Shown: positions 4,963 through 11,423 of the stretch, one piece after another
Position numbering within the stretch: position 1 is the first letter of the stretch
Layout of the letters: each line of letters opens with the position of its first letter
Source: a virus
Taxonomy: Duplodnaviria > Heunggongvirae > Uroviricota > Caudoviricetes
IMG/VR virus record: IMGVR_UViG_2799113093_000010
Direction: 5' to 3' (one strand)
Length of the DNA stretch: 17,694 nucleotides
Program-made: the position numbers and the translations under genes
Notes under the pieces: generated by a model
What the model saw: only the letters and a program-made list of their open reading frames with translations
Told to the model about the DNA's origin: nothing
The model's database searches: none

Positions 4963-6147
4963 CTATCGGGCCGCTGCGACCAGCATCGCGTCGACGCCGG
5001 TGGCGGCGAACTCGTTGGAGCGGTCCACGTCCGCGATCTCCTGCGCGTATGAGGTGACGGCGTGCATGATGCCGCCCGCGGTCGGCTGGCCGCCCTTGAT
5101 GAAGTGGGACAGCAAGCCGCTCATCTCGTTCTGGGAGTAGGCGAGCTTCTTGCCGACCACCTCGATCGTCTGTTGCGGGTTGTCCAGCTCGACGCCGCTG
5201 GTTTCCTCCAGCTTGGCGATCGTCTTGGCGACGTACTCGGTGTTCATGTACGAGGCAACCGCGTCCCGGACCTGCTTCTTGACCAGCTCGTTGGCGGCGT
5301 CGATGGTGTCGGTCGACCAGGTGACGGTGCCTTCGTCGAGCTTGCGGCCCAGGTGGATCTTGCGCATCGCGTCGACGTTGATCTGCATGCCGTTGTCGCA
5401 CACCTGCACCCGCAGCTCCGGGGTGATGGTGAGCGCGCCGCCGCCCGTCTCGCTGTTGGTGACCAGCAGCCCGGCGTAGACCAGCTTCGGGTTTTCGGCT
5501 GTTTCGCCGCCGTGGCCGGTGCCCTGGAACGGGGAGCGGTATCCCTCCAGCAGCTTGCCTGCCTGCACCCCGAACTCGGGTGCGGTGACCCGCAGGTAGA
5601 GCCGGTCGTCGGTGAGGTCCGCGCCGCGGATATGGGTGTGGTTCAGCCCGGCCGCGTGCATGCCGTCAAGGAGCGCCATCACGGTGTCGAGGTTGTCGCG
5701 GATCCCATAGCGGTCGGAGAGCACCGCTCGCACTATGCCGCTGGTGCCTGGCTGGTCCGGGTCGCTGCCGGTGAGCATGCGGACCAGGACCTGACGCTTG
5801 GGATCGATACGGGAGGCCAGCGACTCGTAGTTGGTGTCCAGCAGCGGCACGTACTCGGCGCGCAGCTTGCGCACGTACTTGACTGGGATGTCCAGGACGC
5901 CAGCGAGTTGGGAGTCGGCGAGCTGGGTCAGCCCATAGGCCCCGTTGATGTCGGTGACGCCGTCCTCGTTGATCTGAGGGTCGTGGCCCGTCAGGATCAC
6001 GTTTCCGTCGCCGAACCGTAGCTGCCGTACAGGAACGACCAGGTCGAGCTTCTGGGCGTGCTGCTGTTCGAGGAGCGCGATCAGCTTGGGGAGGTCTGCG
6101 TTGCGCAGAGTCCGGGCCGGAATTTCGGGGAGTGTTGGTGCGGACAT
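4963..6147 (-). CDS. DUF932-like phage/plasmid protein (394 aa; start moved to 6147)
   Basis: RBS AGAAAGG before ATG 6147; motifs RAVLSDRY..RDN, GLLVTNSETGGGAL and VCDNGM...H typical of DUF932. Confidence 0.75.
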   Translation of the reverse strand: MSAPTLPEIPARTLRNADLPKLIALLEQQHAQKLDLVVPVRQLRFGDGNVILTGHDPQINEDGVTDINGAYGLTQLADSQLAGVLDIPVKYVRKLRAEYVPLLDTNYESLASRIDPKRQVLVRMLTGSDPDQPGTSGIVRAVLSDRYGIRDNLDTVMALLDGMHAAGLNHTHIRGADLTDDRLYLRVTAPEFGVQAGKLLEGYRSPFQGTGHGGETAENPKLVYAGLLVTNSETGGGALTITPELRVQVCDNGMQINVDAMRKIHLGRKLDEGTVTWSTDTIDAANELVKKQVRDAVASYMNTEYVAKTIAKLEETSGVELDNPQQTIEVVGKKLAYSQNEMSGLLSHFIKGGQPTAGGIMHAVTSYAQEIADVDRSNEFAATGVDAMLVAAAR

Positions 6148-6196: not shown

Positions 6197-6225
6197 AAGG
6201 TAAAGGCACCTGTACCTTAAATCAA
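6197..6225 (-). promoter_or_regulatory. SigA-like promoter of the DUF932 operon with embedded operator O1 (6200-6215)
   Basis: TTGATT-17 nt-TACCTT on the minus strand; palindrome GTAAAGGCACCTGTAC spans the spacer and the -10. Confidence 0.7.
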
Positions 6226-6290: not shown

Positions 6291-6320
6291 TTGATGTCCA
6301 TAGGTAAAGGCGCCTATACT
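6291..6320 (+). promoter_or_regulatory. SigA-like leaderless promoter of the toxin-like gene with operator O2 (6304-6319)
   Basis: TTGATG-18 nt-TATACT, ATG 6 nt later at 6327; palindrome GTAAAGGCGCCTATAC. Confidence 0.75.
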
Positions 6321-6326
6321 AATGGC

Positions 6327-6575
6327 ATGAGCAAGAGCGAACCGCGCATCACCCGCCCGGCCCGCCGCCACCGCATCGGCGACGCCCACATCCGGGCCGC
6401 TCTCGCGAACGCCGACGACTTCACCATCGACGGAGACATGGTCAAGTACTTCGGCCAGGACGATCGCGGCATCGACATGGAGGTCGGTGTGGTCCCCGAC
6501 AACCGCCGCCCCGGACGCTTCGCGATCATCCACGCCATGCCCCGCAAGTTCCTCATCCCTCGCTCCCAGCGGTGA
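6327..6575 (+). CDS. BrnT/RelE-superfamily-like toxin candidate, 82 aa (start moved to 6327)
   Basis: Pattern ARRHRI...HI..AL...G.DDRG..MEVGVV...IIHAMP.KF recalls small actinobacterial type II ribonuclease-toxin-like proteins; the promoter position supports the start. Confidence 0.6.
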   Translation: MSKSEPRITRPARRHRIGDAHIRAALANADDFTIDGDMVKYFGQDDRGIDMEVGVVPDNRRPGRFAIIHAMPRKFLIPRSQR

Positions 6576-6638
6576 CGCCGGGATTGGGATACAGCGGAGC
6601 GTGGAATGCGGAATCATGAGCCCCCGACAGGAGGATCG

Positions 6639-6785
6639 ATGGAAGAGCCATATGTGATTGATCTGAGCGGGTGGACGCGTCTGCCCGAAGCGGTCCACTA
6701 CGCGGATGTACGGGGGATCGACTTCGGCGATGCGATCCGGGAACTCGTCAATGCCGGCCTGAGTAACTGGAATGGCAACCCGTAG
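6639..6785 (+). CDS. Small protein, 48 aa (MEEPYVIDLSGWTRLPEAVHYADVRGIDFGDAIRELVNAGLSNWNGNP)
   Basis: Below the ORF-track cutoff; perfect AGGAGG SD at 6629-6634, ATG 6639, TAG 6783-6785, followed by a terminator. Confidence 0.65.
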   Translation: MEEPYVIDLSGWTRLPEAVHYADVRGIDFGDAIRELVNAGLSNWNGNP

Positions 6786-6815
6786 AGAAAGCGCACCCGT
6801 GCTGCAGAAACAGGG

Positions 6816-6842
6816 AACCCCCCAAGCTCAGCTTGGGGGGTT
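6816..6842. terminator. Strong hairpin terminator, probably bidirectional
   Basis: AACCCCCCAAGC-TCA-GCTTGGGGGGTT followed by GATTT; lies between the + toxin unit and the - tRNA unit. Confidence 0.8.
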
Positions 6843-6947
6843 GATTTGCATGCGGCGGTGTCCAGAATTAGCAGCCCACGTCTGAAACACCCTTACCGGC
6901 CGTCGGCCACATGCTGCAGTAGACGATACGCCCCGATCAGGGCCTTG

Positions 6948-7020
6948 TGCCACCGGCAGGAGTCGAACCTGCAACCGTCCGCTTAGGAGGCGTCCGCTCT
7001 ATCCGTTGAGCTACGGCGGC
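6948..7020 (-). tRNA. tRNA-Arg(CCT), 73 nt, CCA not encoded, imperfect anticodon stem
   Basis: GCCGCCG-TA-GCTC AACGGATA GAGC-G-GACGC CT CCT AA GCGGA-CGGTT-GCAGG TTCGACT CCTGC-CGGTGGC-A. Acceptor, D and T arms pair; anticodon is the complement of 6985-6987. Confidence 0.85.
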
Positions 7021-7043
7021 ATGCGAGCGGTGCGCTGGAAGCG

Positions 7044-7274
7044 CTATCGGCCGCCCGTCTCGATCCTGTTCACGATCTGCCCGGCTCTGACCTTCGTGAT
7101 TTCGGCTGCTTTCGCCAGCCTGGTCTTCGCGATGCCCATGGCGTCGCCGGTACGGATCAGGTCGTAGATGTGGTCCTGCACGTCTCTCCGCTGCTGGATC
7201 AAGGACTTCTTCTTCTGGCTGGCTGCAGCCAGGTCAGCAAGCAGCTCAAGCCGTTGCTGGGTGTCCTCGTCCAT
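7044..7274 (-). CDS. Small coiled-coil + C-terminal HTH protein, 76 aa (start moved to 7274); candidate repressor/antitoxin
   Basis: MGIAKTRLAKAAEITKVRAGQIV fits a helix-turn-helix; TATACT lies 8 nt before the ATG; stop is 23 nt upstream of the tRNA. Confidence 0.7.
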   Translation of the reverse strand: MDEDTQQRLELLADLAAASQKKKSLIQQRRDVQDHIYDLIRTGDAMGIAKTRLAKAAEITKVRAGQIVNRIETGGR

Positions 7275-7282
7275 AGCGCCAT

Positions 7283-7299
7283 AGTATAGGCGCCTGTAC
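7283..7299 (-). promoter_or_regulatory. -10 TATACT with operator O3 (7284-7299) upstream of the HTH-tRNA unit
   Basis: Minus strand reads GTACAGGCGCCTATACT versus GTAAAGGCGCCTATACT at 6304-6320 (16/17 identical). Confidence 0.75.
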
Positions 7300-7417
7300 C
7301 CCACTCCAAGTGGGAGAACTTGGTGCCCTCCAGGCTGAGCCGCGTGCTCTCCCGGAGTGTGCTGCATCGATCAAGATCCCACTGTAGAGTGCCCGCTAAC
7401 AGTTTGGTCGAGGGGGT

Positions 7418-7744
7418 GTGGTGGCAGGCGACAAAGAGGTGCTCAAGGTCGACCTCGACGCGCTGGGCAAGCTGGGTCCGCATCTGCGGACGCTCGAAGA
7501 GCAGATCACCGCCAGCACTGCGGCCTGCAGCACGACGGCACCGGCGGGTGCTGATCCGGGCCTGGCGGCGCTGTACGGAATGTCGAAAGCCATCGTCGAT
7601 GTCAAGAAGGTCGCCGCTGCTCGGTTGGGGACGATCGCGGACTTCGCCGATGAAGCCCAGAAAGATTTCGCGGTCACGTCCAGTTCGCTGGAGGCCGGTT
7701 TCCGTAACCTGCCCAGCATCTACAAGCCGCCGCTGCAAGCGTAG
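7418..7744 (+). CDS. WXG100-like small ESX (type VII) substrate/partner
   Basis: About 108 aa, helical, LKVDLDALGKL N-terminus typical of mycobacterial ESX partners; directly upstream of the WxG toxin. It has no Trp, so the call rests on size and context. Confidence 0.65.
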   Translation: MVAGDKEVLKVDLDALGKLGPHLRTLEEQITASTAACSTTAPAGADPGLAALYGMSKAIVDVKKVAAARLGTIADFADEAQKDFAVTSSSLEAGFRNLPSIYKPPLQA

Positions 7745-7753
7745 GGGCGTGTC

Positions 7754-10084
7754 GTGACGCCGCTCGATGAGTTCATGGCGAAAGACCGGAACTCCTATAT
7801 GGTGCCGGTGGGCGAGTGGCGACCGCAGACCACGCAGTACAAGGAAGCCTACGACGACTACAAACGCTGGGCCGATAACCCCGCGGGTAGCGAGTGGTGG
7901 GGGCGCTGCGCGAATGCGACATCGGAAGTCGCGGCGAAGGATTGCCACAACTCCGATCACACCGACGACACCACCGAGGATGCCGTCAGGTTGATAACGG
8001 CCACCATCACCTACGAAGTGGTGGAGCCGCTGACCGCTGGCCAGAACCTGATCGAGCGAGTGCTAGCCCGCAAGAACCAGGGTGTGTCCATCGATCAGAC
8101 CTATCACGTGACCTACACCGCCCCGGAGGGGATGAGCGAAGCACAGGCCGCCAAGAACACCAAGGAAGCCGAAGAAGCCGAACGCCAGATCAAGGAATAC
8201 GTCGCCAAGTGGGAGAAGGGCTGCCAAACCCTCAAAACCCAGGCCGACGCCGCGGCCCAGAAGATCACCGACCGCACCAACCCGGCAACAGTCCTCGTCG
8301 ACGGCCGCAAGGTCCTACGCGACGCGGTCGGCCCCGTTCCGGCTGCTCGCCCCGGTGTGGAGACGGTGGTGGGTGGCAAGCCGGTCTCGGAGTTGTTGCC
8401 AGGGATTAACCCCCGCCAGGTCGACCCGGCCGCCACGACTGCTCAGACCGCTTCGACCGCGACGCCGACCGATCCGTCGAAGCTGCTGGAACAGTCGTTG
8501 CCCAAGCCCGCAGCCGACCAGAAGCCGGTCTACGATCCGAAGTCGCTGGGCTCCCTGGGTAGCGTGACTGGCTTCTTGGAGGCGAACAAGAAGCCCGACG
8601 CGAAGCCGGCCGATCAGCCTGCACCGCAACAGAAGGGCTTTATCGACGGTTGGGTCGATGAAGCGAAGAAGACAGCCTCGGGCATCGTCGAACACGCTGG
8701 GGATCTGGTCGGCCTGCACGGCGCTGACAAGGCCAAGGACGCGTGGATACAGACCGCGACGGGCATGGGGATGCAGTTGGCCGAGCAGGACCCAACCTTC
8801 GGCCCGGCCATTCGGAACTATGAGAACCAGGTCGAGGCGGTGAACAACGCCGCCGAGACGATCCAGCACCCCGAAGACACCATGCGGCGGGTCGGTGCGC
8901 AGACCTTCGATTTTCAGGCCAAGCTCGGTGCCGATGCCCTAGCGCTCGGTACCGGTGGGATTGGTCGCGTGGCCGAGGGCGGCATTCTGGAAGGAGCGCT
9001 CGCCGAGGGTCGAGCTGGACTGTCCGAGGCTGCCGTTCCGACCCTTCGAGGTGCCGTCACCGACAGCGTTAAGGGCTTCCTCGATGACGCGATGCACCCA
9101 CACATCGAGGCACCAGCAGCACCCCACGTCGAAACCCCCTCCCTGCCGCGCGTCGAGACTCCCGTAGCACCCCACGTCGAAGCCCCAGCTGCACCCCACG
9201 TCGAGACGCCCCCACCTCCGCAGGCAGACGTACCGACCACACCCCATACGGAAGCACCCGCACCGCACACCGAGGTACCTGCAGCGCCGAGAGCGGAAGT
9301 CCCCGCCGCGCCCCACGTCGAAGCCCCGGCTGCGCCGCGGGCCGAGGTACCGGTAGCACCACACGTAGAGGGTCCCGCAACACCTCATGCCGAAGTACCG
9401 TCAGCACCGCAGCTAGACGGGGTACCAGTAGCACCGCATGTAGAGGCACCCGCCGCGCCGGACGCCGAAGCACCTGCGCCCGCTCCACACCAACCAGAAC
9501 CGAACGTCGGAACCAGCCACCCGGAGCCGAACACCGGTCATCAGCCACCGCCGACAAGCGGTGGCGATCACTCCGCAGGCAGTGGTGATCACACACCGGC
9601 GCACACCGATTCGGACTCAGGTAGCCGGCTACCAGCGCATGGGGAGCCGGACTCATTTGGCTACGACGCCGACGGCAACCGACTCAGGTACGCGAACGAT
9701 AGGCCAGATTACGGCGCGGGGCAGGAGGAGACGGTCTGGAACAACTCGCGTGACGACCAGCTGGCACGCATCGACGCCGGCCAGCTCGACCTTCCCCGAC
9801 CTGGTCCGAACCAGCAGTGGGTGGAGCTACATCCTCAGGGTCCGATCGGCGACGACTGGACCGTTCAGAACGGCCACCGACTAATCGAATGGGAGCCCGG
9901 TGACTCTCGCAGAGGCCTCTGGGACATGGGTCACGGCCGCGGACTGGAGTACCGCGACCTTCGACAGTTGTATCTGAACGGCGACATCTCCTTTGAGGAA
10001 TTCATGAGCCGGTACCGGGATCCCGGCAACTACCGAGTCGAGGACCCGTACCGGAACCAGTCCCACATTGACGAGGGTCCATGA
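7754..10084 (+). CDS. ESX-secreted polymorphic toxin with C-terminal GH-E (HNH/EndoVII) nuclease domain
   Basis: N-terminal WxG (EWWG, aa 47-50) helical domain; LALGTGG pre-toxin-like segment; Pro-rich linker; C-terminal RP.Y..GQ.E.VW, WDMGH..G.E (9920-) and DP.NYR.E...N.SH..E. Confidence 0.88.
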   Translation: MTPLDEFMAKDRNSYMVPVGEWRPQTTQYKEAYDDYKRWADNPAGSEWWGRCANATSEVAAKDCHNSDHTDDTTEDAVRLITATITYEVVEPLTAGQNLIERVLARKNQGVSIDQTYHVTYTAPEGMSEAQAAKNTKEAEEAERQIKEYVAKWEKGCQTLKTQADAAAQKITDRTNPATVLVDGRKVLRDAVGPVPAARPGVETVVGGKPVSELLPGINPRQVDPAATTAQTASTATPTDPSKLLEQSLPKPAADQKPVYDPKSLGSLGSVTGFLEANKKPDAKPADQPAPQQKGFIDGWVDEAKKTASGIVEHAGDLVGLHGADKAKDAWIQTATGMGMQLAEQDPTFGPAIRNYENQVEAVNNAAETIQHPEDTMRRVGAQTFDFQAKLGADALALGTGGIGRVAEGGILEGALAEGRAGLSEAAVPTLRGAVTDSVKGFLDDAMHPHIEAPAAPHVETPSLPRVETPVAPHVEAPAAPHVETPPPPQADVPTTPHTEAPAPHTEVPAAPRAEVPAAPHVEAPAAPRAEVPVAPHVEGPATPHAEVPSAPQLDGVPVAPHVEAPAAPDAEAPAPAPHQPEPNVGTSHPEPNTGHQPPPTSGGDHSAGSGDHTPAHTDSDSGSRLPAHGEPDSFGYDADGNRLRYANDRPDYGAGQEETVWNNSRDDQLARIDAGQLDLPRPGPNQQWVELHPQGPIGDDWTVQNGHRLIEWEPGDSRRGLWDMGHGRGLEYRDLRQLYLNGDISFEEFMSRYRDPGNYRVEDPYRNQSHIDEGP
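9098..9481 (+). repeat. 16 tandem ~8-aa repeats (consensus PHVEAPAA) in the toxin linker
   Basis: PHIEAPAA/PHVETPSL/PRVETPVA/PHVEAPAA/.../PDAEAPAP; one 7-aa and one 9-aa unit. Confidence 0.9.
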
Positions 10085-10108
10085 CTAATCCAGAGGTAGG
10101 GTGATGCC

Positions 10109-10627
10109 GTGAGCGTGGTCATGGCCGCATGGGAGGGGTCGTTTGAGGATTTCCTCAGCGTGTATACCCCTGCCGACGCGACGAAGCTCTTCGGGGACGG
10201 ACGTCCGCTGCTTTTCAAGTCCGTCGGAAACAGAGACGTCAAGGCGCGAGTAGCGATCACTAATCGGCTGCTGGACGACGGCGCCGACCCGTCGATAGCG
10301 CCCGACAACGTGAACGTGCTGCACGTGCTTTTCGACCAGCGAACACATGACACGGAGTACGAGGCACCGATGCTGCGGCGGTTGATCGAACGCGGCGCGG
10401 ACATCAACCTGTTCTCCAAGCGGTCTGGTCCACCGCTCGCGGTGTTGATCCAGCACGGCCCGTCGCCGGAGAGCGAGTGCGTTCCCTTCTACGACGTGAT
10501 ATTCGATCAGCCGAACCTCGATCTCACCGGCCGCTACCTACATGACCTCATCTTCAACTCCGCGTGGAACCTGCCCATCCTCCGGGAGCGGGTGCTGGCG
10601 TACGAGTCTGCGCACGAATCGGCGTAG
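10109..10627 (+). CDS. Ankyrin-repeat-like immunity protein
   Basis: LLDDGADPS, N.LH.L and LIERGADIN ankyrin motifs; first gene after the toxin; SD-like GAGGTAGGG. Confidence 0.78.
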   Translation: MSVVMAAWEGSFEDFLSVYTPADATKLFGDGRPLLFKSVGNRDVKARVAITNRLLDDGADPSIAPDNVNVLHVLFDQRTHDTEYEAPMLRRLIERGADINLFSKRSGPPLAVLIQHGPSPESECVPFYDVIFDQPNLDLTGRYLHDLIFNSAWNLPILRERVLAYESAHESA

Positions 10628-10631
10628 ATGG

Positions 10632-10997
10632 ATGGCTGACTACATCGACTTCATCCCGAAGTCCGGGGTGTGCCTCGCCACTGAGAATGTGATGGACCGT
10701 CGAGGCGTCGTCCGCTGGATGTGGCGGCGAGAGTCTCAGCGGCCCGCTGACAACGGCTGGCGAATCATGAGCCATCTCGACACGAGTGAGTACCTCGATG
10801 ACCCGAACAACTGGCGGATAGTCGCGTTCAACGATGTCTGCAACATCGAGCCGGCGCTGATCGGCATCTACGACTTCCCAGTCGGGTCCGACCTGCAGAT
10901 CGTGCGTGACGAGCGGGGCATCAGCATCTACGACACCCCGACCGGGCGGCAGATACCCGAGGAAGAGTTCTACGTTCCGCCGGAGTTCCGGGCATAG
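10632..10997 (+). CDS. DUF2185/Imm33-like immunity protein (start moved to 10632)
   Basis: C.AT..V...V.WM.R....ADNGWR..S...SEYLDDP.N..IV.FN...NIEP....YD.PVGSDL matches the DUF2185 pattern; ATG 4 nt after the previous stop. Confidence 0.8.
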   Translation: MADYIDFIPKSGVCLATENVMDRRGVVRWMWRRESQRPADNGWRIMSHLDTSEYLDDPNNWRIVAFNDVCNIEPALIGIYDFPVGSDLQIVRDERGISIYDTPTGRQIPEEEFYVPPEFRA

Positions 10998-11075: not shown

Positions 11076-11423
11076 CTAAACAGCGTCACGGACAGCGGCA
11101 ATGGTGCGGCGCCACTCGGCGACCTTCTCCGGTGACACCTGGTCGCCGACCAGCACCACCATCTCGTCGGCCACCACCAGCAGCGCCCGGGTCAACCGCT
11201 CCAGCGTCTGCAGCTCCGCGTCCAGCTTCTCCTCGCGTCTCTCCAGTCGCGAGATCAGCTTGTTGGAGGACTCGGTGATCGTGCCGGCCGCGGTCGCCAC
11301 CGACTTCGCGGCGTCCGCGCGCTTGGAGCCGCGCGCGAACAGCCCGGAGATGATGGCGGTCATGAGGGAGCCCGCCGCGGCGGAACCCGCGATGGCCATG
11401 AGGATCTGGGGGAGGTCGCTCAC
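11076..11423 (-). CDS. Lysis-cassette membrane protein (N-terminal TM + coiled coil)
   Basis: Hydrophobic aa 7-29, then heptad-like LERREEKLDAELQTLERL; GTGA overlap with the upstream gene. Confidence 0.75.
   Translation of the reverse strand: MSDLPQILMAIAGSAAAGSLMTAIISGLFARGSKRADAAKSVATAAGTITESSNKLISRLERREEKLDAELQTLERLTRALLVVADEMVVLVGDQVSPEKVAEWRRTIAAVRDAV

Follow-up and report, generated by a model that had tools for sequence, protein, structure and literature searches.

Predicted control of a RelS/BrnT-like toxin candidate by an HTH regulon in a mycobacterial prophage

How is a toxin gene kept in check if no antitoxin gene is coupled to it? This question is raised by a locus within the window analysed here, a stretch of 17,694 nt that is contained in an 88.7-kb provirus record (G000) with the setting of a mycobacterial prophage. 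A preliminary description, made from the letters of the DNA, had proposed a split toxin-antitoxin (TA) system in which protection is transcriptional, exerted by a protein in trans or based on RNA.

Layout of the locus and family of the toxin

The closest annotated relatives of the provirus are the Mycobacterium abscessus MabK prophages prophiGD43A-5 and prophiT37-1 and the cluster Y phages Typha and Bipper. Identical copies of the stretch are present in one NCBI genome and in Logan/ENA assemblies. The toxin region has an integrase on one side and, on the other, a WXG100/GH-E polymorphic toxin cassette with the lysis genes behind it. The cassette (7418-10997) is of the PEST type and comprises WXG100, a polymorphic toxin with a GH-E nuclease tip, an ankyrin-like gene and an Imm33 gene, the last two being candidate immunity genes. 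At 774-2999 two related, divergent tyrosine integrase genes are found with 71-77% complementary blocks, which would fit two prophages lying side by side.

The toxin candidate (82 aa, 6327-6575, plus strand) is preceded by a predicted SigA-like promoter on the same strand (6291-6320; TTGATG-18-TATACT, -35 at 6291, -10 at 6315-6320). Its ATG lies 6 nt past the -10 box, hence a leaderless start is predicted, as had been assumed before. Three RNA runs contain no reads from the stretch. None of the open reading frames in the window overlaps the 3' end of the toxin gene. It is followed by an ORF of 48 codons and by a hairpin of 12 bp (6816-6842; z about -4 for either strand, terminator score on the minus strand), which is likely a bidirectional intrinsic terminator. 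On the minus strand a tRNA gene and, convergent with the toxin, a gene for a coiled-coil and helix-turn-helix (HTH) protein complete the arrangement. Every part of this layout had been noticed in the preliminary description and was found again. Absent from that description are a 16-bp palindrome shared by several promoters (6200, 6304 and 7284) and a structured element between terminator and tRNA (6849-6915, minus strand).

The identity of the toxin was evaluated by profile and fold comparison. It matches phrog_36779 ('toxin', E 1.5e-8) as well as phage proteins annotated as 'BrnT-like toxin'. A profile of 37 toxin homologs matches chain C of PDB entry 9SDC (E 7.8e-7); the profile is needed here, as the single sequence alone does not match this chain. 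Pfam and NCBIfam searches assigned neither the toxin nor its alignment to a meaningful family, and word-index searches for homologs returned almost nothing. The predicted model (pLDDT 91) finds BrnT (3u97) as top Foldseek match (E 0.04, prob 0.99, TM 0.53). In the VIA fold search the top four matches are TA toxins with moderate scores (Z 5.2-6.4), BrnT again among the matches with a moderate Z of 6.2 and an rmsd of 2.7 over 70 residues. 9SDC is not among the matches listed in the fold searches with this model.

Entry 9SDC is RelS (Rv2663) of M. tuberculosis, an acutely toxic protein first described in 2026, which cuts inside the anti-Shine-Dalgarno core of 16S rRNA and has RelI as its neutralising partner (PMC13284704). 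Mutation of K9, H10 or H64 severely reduces RelS toxicity, while R69 and K71 have a minor influence (PMC13284704). R14, H15 and H69 of the toxin candidate align to K9, H10 and H64. By offset, the position of R69 is occupied by a lysine (K74), K71 is unmatched and the C-terminus is unlike that of RelS. A wastewater variant of the gene carries four substitutions, three synonymous ones and I34V, so that the pattern can be taken as a small sign of purifying selection. Taken together, profile, fold model and residues support a RelS/BrnT-like RNase toxin candidate of the RelE superfamily, which agrees with the RelE/BrnT fold assigned earlier; its absence had been named as grounds for rejecting the idea. 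Toxicity would be expected by analogy to RelS, and the target would be the anti-Shine-Dalgarno end of 16S rRNA; BrnT, by comparison, acts on mRNA.

If the toxin were attenuated or active only under a condition such as a phage trigger or cofactor, no antitoxin would be needed at all, and the gene would be regulon cargo for translation shut-off or abortive infection. Orphan toxins of TA origin in phages can indeed be non-toxic (LeBron gp82 HicA), the homolog of Bipper is divergent and the R69 position is changed in the window. However, the toxin retains the three key catalytic positions, and most changes in the wastewater variant are synonymous. We regard attenuation as rather unlikely; moreover, it is compatible with repression by the HTH protein and does not exclude it.

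The usual antitoxin and the candidates for its place

In relatives the toxin gene is directly followed by an antitoxin gene with a ribbon-helix-helix (RHH) domain. This holds for 15/15 genome loci, 2/2 viral loci, five annotated phages and 18/21 metagenome loci, the other three ending at a contig edge. In most loci this antitoxin is 100-120 aa long with an acidic N-terminal part, and it overlaps the toxin nearly always. In several assemblies (L021 3992-4606, P0014, P0057) apparent fusions of toxin and RHH antitoxin or read-through ORFs occur, which may be real or sequencing artefacts. A separate toxin clade, the RelS-RelI branch (8 loci), has a gene for a RelI-like coiled-coil and HTH protein next. 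The toxin of the window lies outside this clade (95/95 support) and sits among toxins partnered by the acidic RHH antitoxin. The preliminary description had named a coiled-coil and HTH gene as frequent follower of the family; this applies to the RelS-RelI branch but not to the toxin of the window.

The profile of the acidic RHH antitoxin (A4) finds nothing in the provirus at E ≤ 1 and nothing in Typha or Bipper, in line with the absence of a coupled antitoxin stated before. A downstream acidic RHH antitoxin, as in a type II operon, is thus not found in the provirus. The same profile detects truncated forms in the MabK prophages, in which the toxin was found by HMM search (prophiGD43A-5 and prophiT37-1). 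These antitoxins have 64-67 aa and match only positions 3-56 of the canonical profile, hence the RHH is gone. The MabK state can be read as an intermediate, the antitoxin having lost just its DNA-binding half. The toxin gene of these prophages is about 44 kb away from the HTH gene, and its promoter still carries the operator. In L037 (5890-6329, prophiGD43A-5 genes 49-50) and L086-L088 two HTH-type palindromes are situated upstream of the toxin, with the acidic N-terminal antitoxin lacking RHH. The toxins of this lineage have no histidine equivalent to H10.

The 48-aa ORF (6639-6785, plus strand) stands in the canonical position of an antitoxin gene. It starts 63 nt downstream of the toxin gene on the same strand with no stable structure in between, so co-transcription is probable, and it has a good ribosome-binding site (GGAGG). 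The product is acidic (8 D/E vs 3 K/R) with a predicted fold that may be RHH-like. Helices are predicted at residues 15-25 and 29-38, and the top VIA matches are mostly RHH proteins but weak (N-domain of MazE9 Z 3.9, ArtA 3.8; all below 4). Named neighbours in the Atlas language-model search are also RHH proteins at a weak 0.89-0.90. The ORF is called in the NCBI, Logan and ENA copies as well. Against a cognate antitoxin speaks that comparison to the canonical antitoxin profile shows no significant similarity (prob 0.9%), and the acidic N-terminal domain which MabK prophages retain is missing. Likewise no such ORF follows the toxin in the sister locus L005, in Typha or in Bipper, and a word-index search found no homologs. 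A likeness to the N-terminal domain of the antitoxin was considered and dropped, being unsupported in the profile comparison. We thus consider a cognate antitoxin quite improbable; according to the models, the ORF most likely encodes a bare RHH regulator or is a passenger.

The HTH protein (76 aa, 7044-7274, minus strand; phrog_686, E 1e-4) could on the other hand be a RelI-like antitoxin acting in trans, forming a true split type II pair with the toxin. RelI is likewise a coiled-coil and HTH protein and neutralises RelS also in trans (PMC13284704). Compared with a RelI-like protein, the protein of the window gives a weak alignment (hhalign prob 47%, E 2e-4), and its N-terminus begins with acidic residues. 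However, residues 2-24 of RelI are essential for neutralisation (PMC13284704), while the alignment covers only residues 31-81 of the RelI-like protein, with 9 residues before the aligned helix. As the alignment begins at residue 31, the neutralising segment is seemingly missing from the HTH protein. Moreover, the toxin groups outside the RelI-coupled clade, MabK prophages keep a separate antitoxin domain although they have the same type of HTH protein, and the N-termini of the HTH proteins of Typha and Bipper are basic. A RelI-like function therefore has a low probability, comparable to that of the 48-aa ORF being the antitoxin.

Compared to RelS-RelI (Rv2663-Rv2664), the locus shares toxin family, size, the equivalents of K9, H10 and H64 and a coiled-coil and HTH protein nearby. 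It differs in that the HTH gene is uncoupled and convergent, its product lacks the neutralising N-terminal segment and the toxin belongs elsewhere in the tree. Furthermore, no inverted repeat or DNA binding is reported for RelSI, whereas the main link in the window is an operator. The closest toxin relatives are of the BrnT-BrnA type and belong to actinobacterial pairs of BrnT-like toxin and RHH/CopG protein, as annotated in PhrostedPhlake (39/38), Eyre (31/30) and JustASigh (88/87); they share the BrnT fold and a promoter near the start codon. In contrast to these pairs, the window has no coupled acidic RHH antitoxin, and the promoter bears an HTH-type palindrome instead.

A palindrome shared by the toxin and HTH promoters

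The 16-bp palindrome occurs only three times in the 88.7 kb with up to two mismatches allowed. For the copies at 6200, 6304 and 7284, 6 strand-matches were counted vs 0.06 expected. One copy (6304-6319) covers spacer and -10 box of the toxin promoter and a second (7284-7299) the -10 box of the HTH gene, for which autoregulation is predicted. The third (6200-6215) is located upstream of the divergent phrog_1362 gene (4963-6147, minus strand), whose 394-aa product has no match in Pfam and is a regulon member in every relative examined. A related palindrome, GT(A/C)TAG-N4-CTA(T/G)AC, precedes the toxin, the HTH homolog and phrog_1362, along with additional accessory genes, in Typha, Bipper, prophiGD43A-5 and prophiT37-1, with one mismatch at the HTH gene of Typha. 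The half-sites in the window, GTA(A/C/T)AG, are somewhat unlike those of the relatives. Upstream of the toxin the palindrome was also found in G003, G004 and L005, and upstream of both toxin and HTH gene in G002. None of 22 toxin-RHH loci (L004, L011, L012, L014-L032) has it. Scans of viral contigs for the palindrome gave mostly unrelated matches, and a scan with the phrog_1362 protein found nothing there.

All HTH proteins tested match phrog_686. Together with the palindrome they serve one to five other promoters besides those of toxin and HTH gene. By its predicted sites, the HTH protein would thus be a general regulator rather than a dedicated antitoxin. Additional copies are situated far from toxin and HTH gene in Typha (W01; 67195, 69037 and 70493) and prophiGD43A-5 (W03; 28849), hence in relatives the predicted regulon spans the genome. 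Of the split TA system proposed earlier, the link between toxin and HTH gene holds by virtue of the shared palindrome; the term 'split TA pair' however overstates this link because HTH protein and palindrome also serve those other promoters. Protection by transcription, one of the options named at the time, gains support from the palindrome common to both promoters and its conservation in several phage lineages.

The phylogenetic tree pairs the toxin of the window with that of L005 (100/99), while Typha and Bipper are placed elsewhere and the MabK toxin is sister to intact toxin-RHH pairs of the Gordonia type. The six operator-controlled toxins had been defined as a group prior to tree building, and a single clade of all six is rejected (AU p 1.4e-7). 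The same test on the four orphan toxins is borderline (p 0.049) with short alignment rows. As the operator-controlled toxins do not form one clade, RHH autoregulation was lost and an HTH-type operator gained at least twice. This repetition, as read from the tree, is the strongest argument for control by the HTH protein at the toxin promoter.

Hence we assume, with somewhat better than even confidence, that the HTH protein represses toxin transcription as part of a wider regulon by binding to the predicted sites. We infer the following course from binding and repression to toxicity, rRNA target and trigger. A RelS-like RNase that blocks translation would have come out of a type II toxin-RHH pair to stand under a second, phage-wide repressor. 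The dimeric coiled-coil and HTH protein would bind palindromes of the type GTATAG-N4-CTATAC and block two -10 boxes, that of the toxin gene and that of its own gene, thereby also affecting the downstream tRNA, and probably the promoter of phrog_1362 as well. Such a negative loop could keep the toxin nearly silent without a neutralising protein. If the repressor were absent or diluted, leaderless toxin mRNA would be translated, host ribosomes attacked and host translation blocked. Possible triggers are incoming DNA early in infection, induction, titration by the operators of a related phage and translation stress. The toxin could serve early host takeover or abortive defence, and the model leaves room for both. 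In other M. abscessus prophages, TA pairs are expressed during lysogeny, and a role in defence has been proposed for them (PMC8092301).

Repression alone may be insufficient, since the toxicity of RelS is high enough for leaky expression to prevent transformants (PMC13284704). The toxin of the window may be weaker than RelS, or a further inhibitor may exist. Against control by HTH repression speaks also that the MabK relatives still carry a protein antitoxin domain. The lysine at the R69 position, the deviating C-terminus, the moderate fold match and the deviating half-sites count against the model too. Alternatively, the HTH protein might activate transcription, or a different protein might recognise the palindrome.

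Aca1 and Aca2 are HTH repressors of anti-CRISPR promoters. Similar to these Aca-type repressors, a small HTH protein is encoded in the window and inverted repeats lie over its own promoter and over that of a potentially harmful cargo gene. On the other hand, the regulon is dispersed over multiple promoters, the cargo is an RNase toxin and no Acr is evident. By this analogy, the locus would behave as an Aca-type cassette whose repressed cargo is a RelS-like toxin.

The same toxin family, phrog_686 HTH protein, palindrome, phrog_1362 and a nearby tRNA are found in Typha (42/37), Bipper (42/39) and prophiGD43A-5 (50/49/109), where the genes are annotated only as 'BrnT-like toxin' and as hypothetical or HTH genes. 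A literature search found no paper on the regulation of these toxins, on a regulatory link between toxin and HTH gene or on the structured element. A phage-borne RelS relative without protein antitoxin, along with an RHH-less intermediate, illustrates how phages can bring a TA toxin into a regulon of their own. Testable roles thereby emerge for genes of cluster Y phages and M. abscessus prophages that had been uncharacterised, which is relevant to phage defence and phage therapy.

The structured element and the tRNA

The element (6849-6915, minus strand) has 67 nt and consists of an outer stem of 9 bp, a conserved one-sided 5' bulge of 14-16 nt and an inner stem. The consensus of the bulge is CGA(N)CG(U)GCCGGUAAG. 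Four further copies were obtained (L003 ~7281-7353 and L005 ~5278-5349, both minus strand; L118 ~2500-2567 and L115 ~11185-11263, both plus strand), using synteny (L005, Typha), blastn (cluster K4 phage Fionnbharth) and a motif scan (L115). Ten of 14 pairs covary with both sides changed, and 91% of cells are paired vs 23-57% in slid controls, figures that lean in favour of the structure as it was derived from the same five related sequences. A TANNNT hexamer stands 6-8 nt upstream in 4/5 copies (6929-6924 in the window), so the element probably has a -10 box of its own. Rfam holds no match, a model of the element found nothing in 149 Mycobacteriaceae-level genomes under stricter filters and with no positive control, and motif scans gave no convincing further full copy. 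Phages of the Cheetobro type in cluster K4 keep only the left half. Comparisons of the bulge with helix 45 of 16S rRNA and of the element with an HDV-like ribozyme were judged by eye only and dropped. We hold it to be quite likely that the element is a real small RNA. Irrespective of any connection to the toxin, it may represent a new family of small RNAs in mycobacteriophages, Fionnbharth among them.

Could this RNA be the antitoxin? Alongside HTH repression or in its place, it might substitute for the lost protein antitoxin as a decoy or inhibitor, similar to type III systems. It is located directly opposite the toxin in three antitoxin-less lineages with intact HAMP motif (window, L005 and Typha group), and it was not found in Bipper with its divergent toxin, in MabK prophages, which kept the protein antitoxin, or in toxin-RHH phages. 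The covariation and the upstream hexamer fit as well. Full copies, however, are also present in Fionnbharth and L115, a 12-kb fragment, with no toxin found there. Neither an 8-nt complementarity to the toxin mRNA nor an anti-SD mimic is apparent, and the whole structure comes from the five related sequences. An antitoxin role of the element is accordingly doubtful. Still further reaching would be a scenario in which temperate mycobacteriophages repeatedly dropped the protein antitoxin of a RelS-like anti-Shine-Dalgarno nuclease in favour of the HTH repressor and an undescribed, neutralising 67-nt small RNA. Such a new RNA-antitoxin architecture might shift translation to leaderless mRNAs or abort superinfection, but we deem it speculative and little probable.

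Unlike the RNA of a type III system, the element is a single copy downstream of the toxin on the opposite strand, with no tandem repeat and no Rfam family. For a type I system an antisense RNA would be expected; the element lies outside the toxin ORF, in which no complementary word of ≥ 8 nt exists. Judged by sequence, the locus is neither a type II TA operon nor a system of type I or III.

The tRNA-Arg(CCT) gene (6947-7020, minus strand), the sole tRNA gene of the provirus, is located 23 nt downstream of the HTH gene and probably co-transcribed with it. It had been suggested as decoy or replacement for a toxin target. Within 1 kb of the toxin lie the sole tRNA genes of the provirus, Typha and Bipper as well as the annotated tRNA-Thr of prophiGD43A-5. 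RelS, however, cuts 16S rRNA (PMC13284704), and the identity of the adjacent tRNA changes (Arg-CCT; Met and Arg-TCT; Met; Thr). ARAGORN detects none beside the toxin of prophiT37-1 or G003, VanLee has a similar tRNA-Arg near phrog_1362 with no toxin and the toxin gene contains no AGG codon. We hence regard the suggestion as highly improbable. In the HTH gene 4/8 Arg codons are AGG or AGA (two each) vs 10/224 in 13 other genes of the window (post hoc P 2e-4), and synthesis of the repressor could depend on this tRNA. This is only a hint since the enrichment is not conserved in relatives.

The predicted tRNA-Arg(CCT) has two non-canonical pairs in the anticodon stem, and no CCA is encoded. In L005 (5001-6526) the genes next to the sister toxin, in convergent orientation, are tRNA-Met, hicB, a hicA-like gene and, where the locus ends, a partial tRNA-Arg(CCT), with a second RNase TA pair thus lying between the tRNAs.
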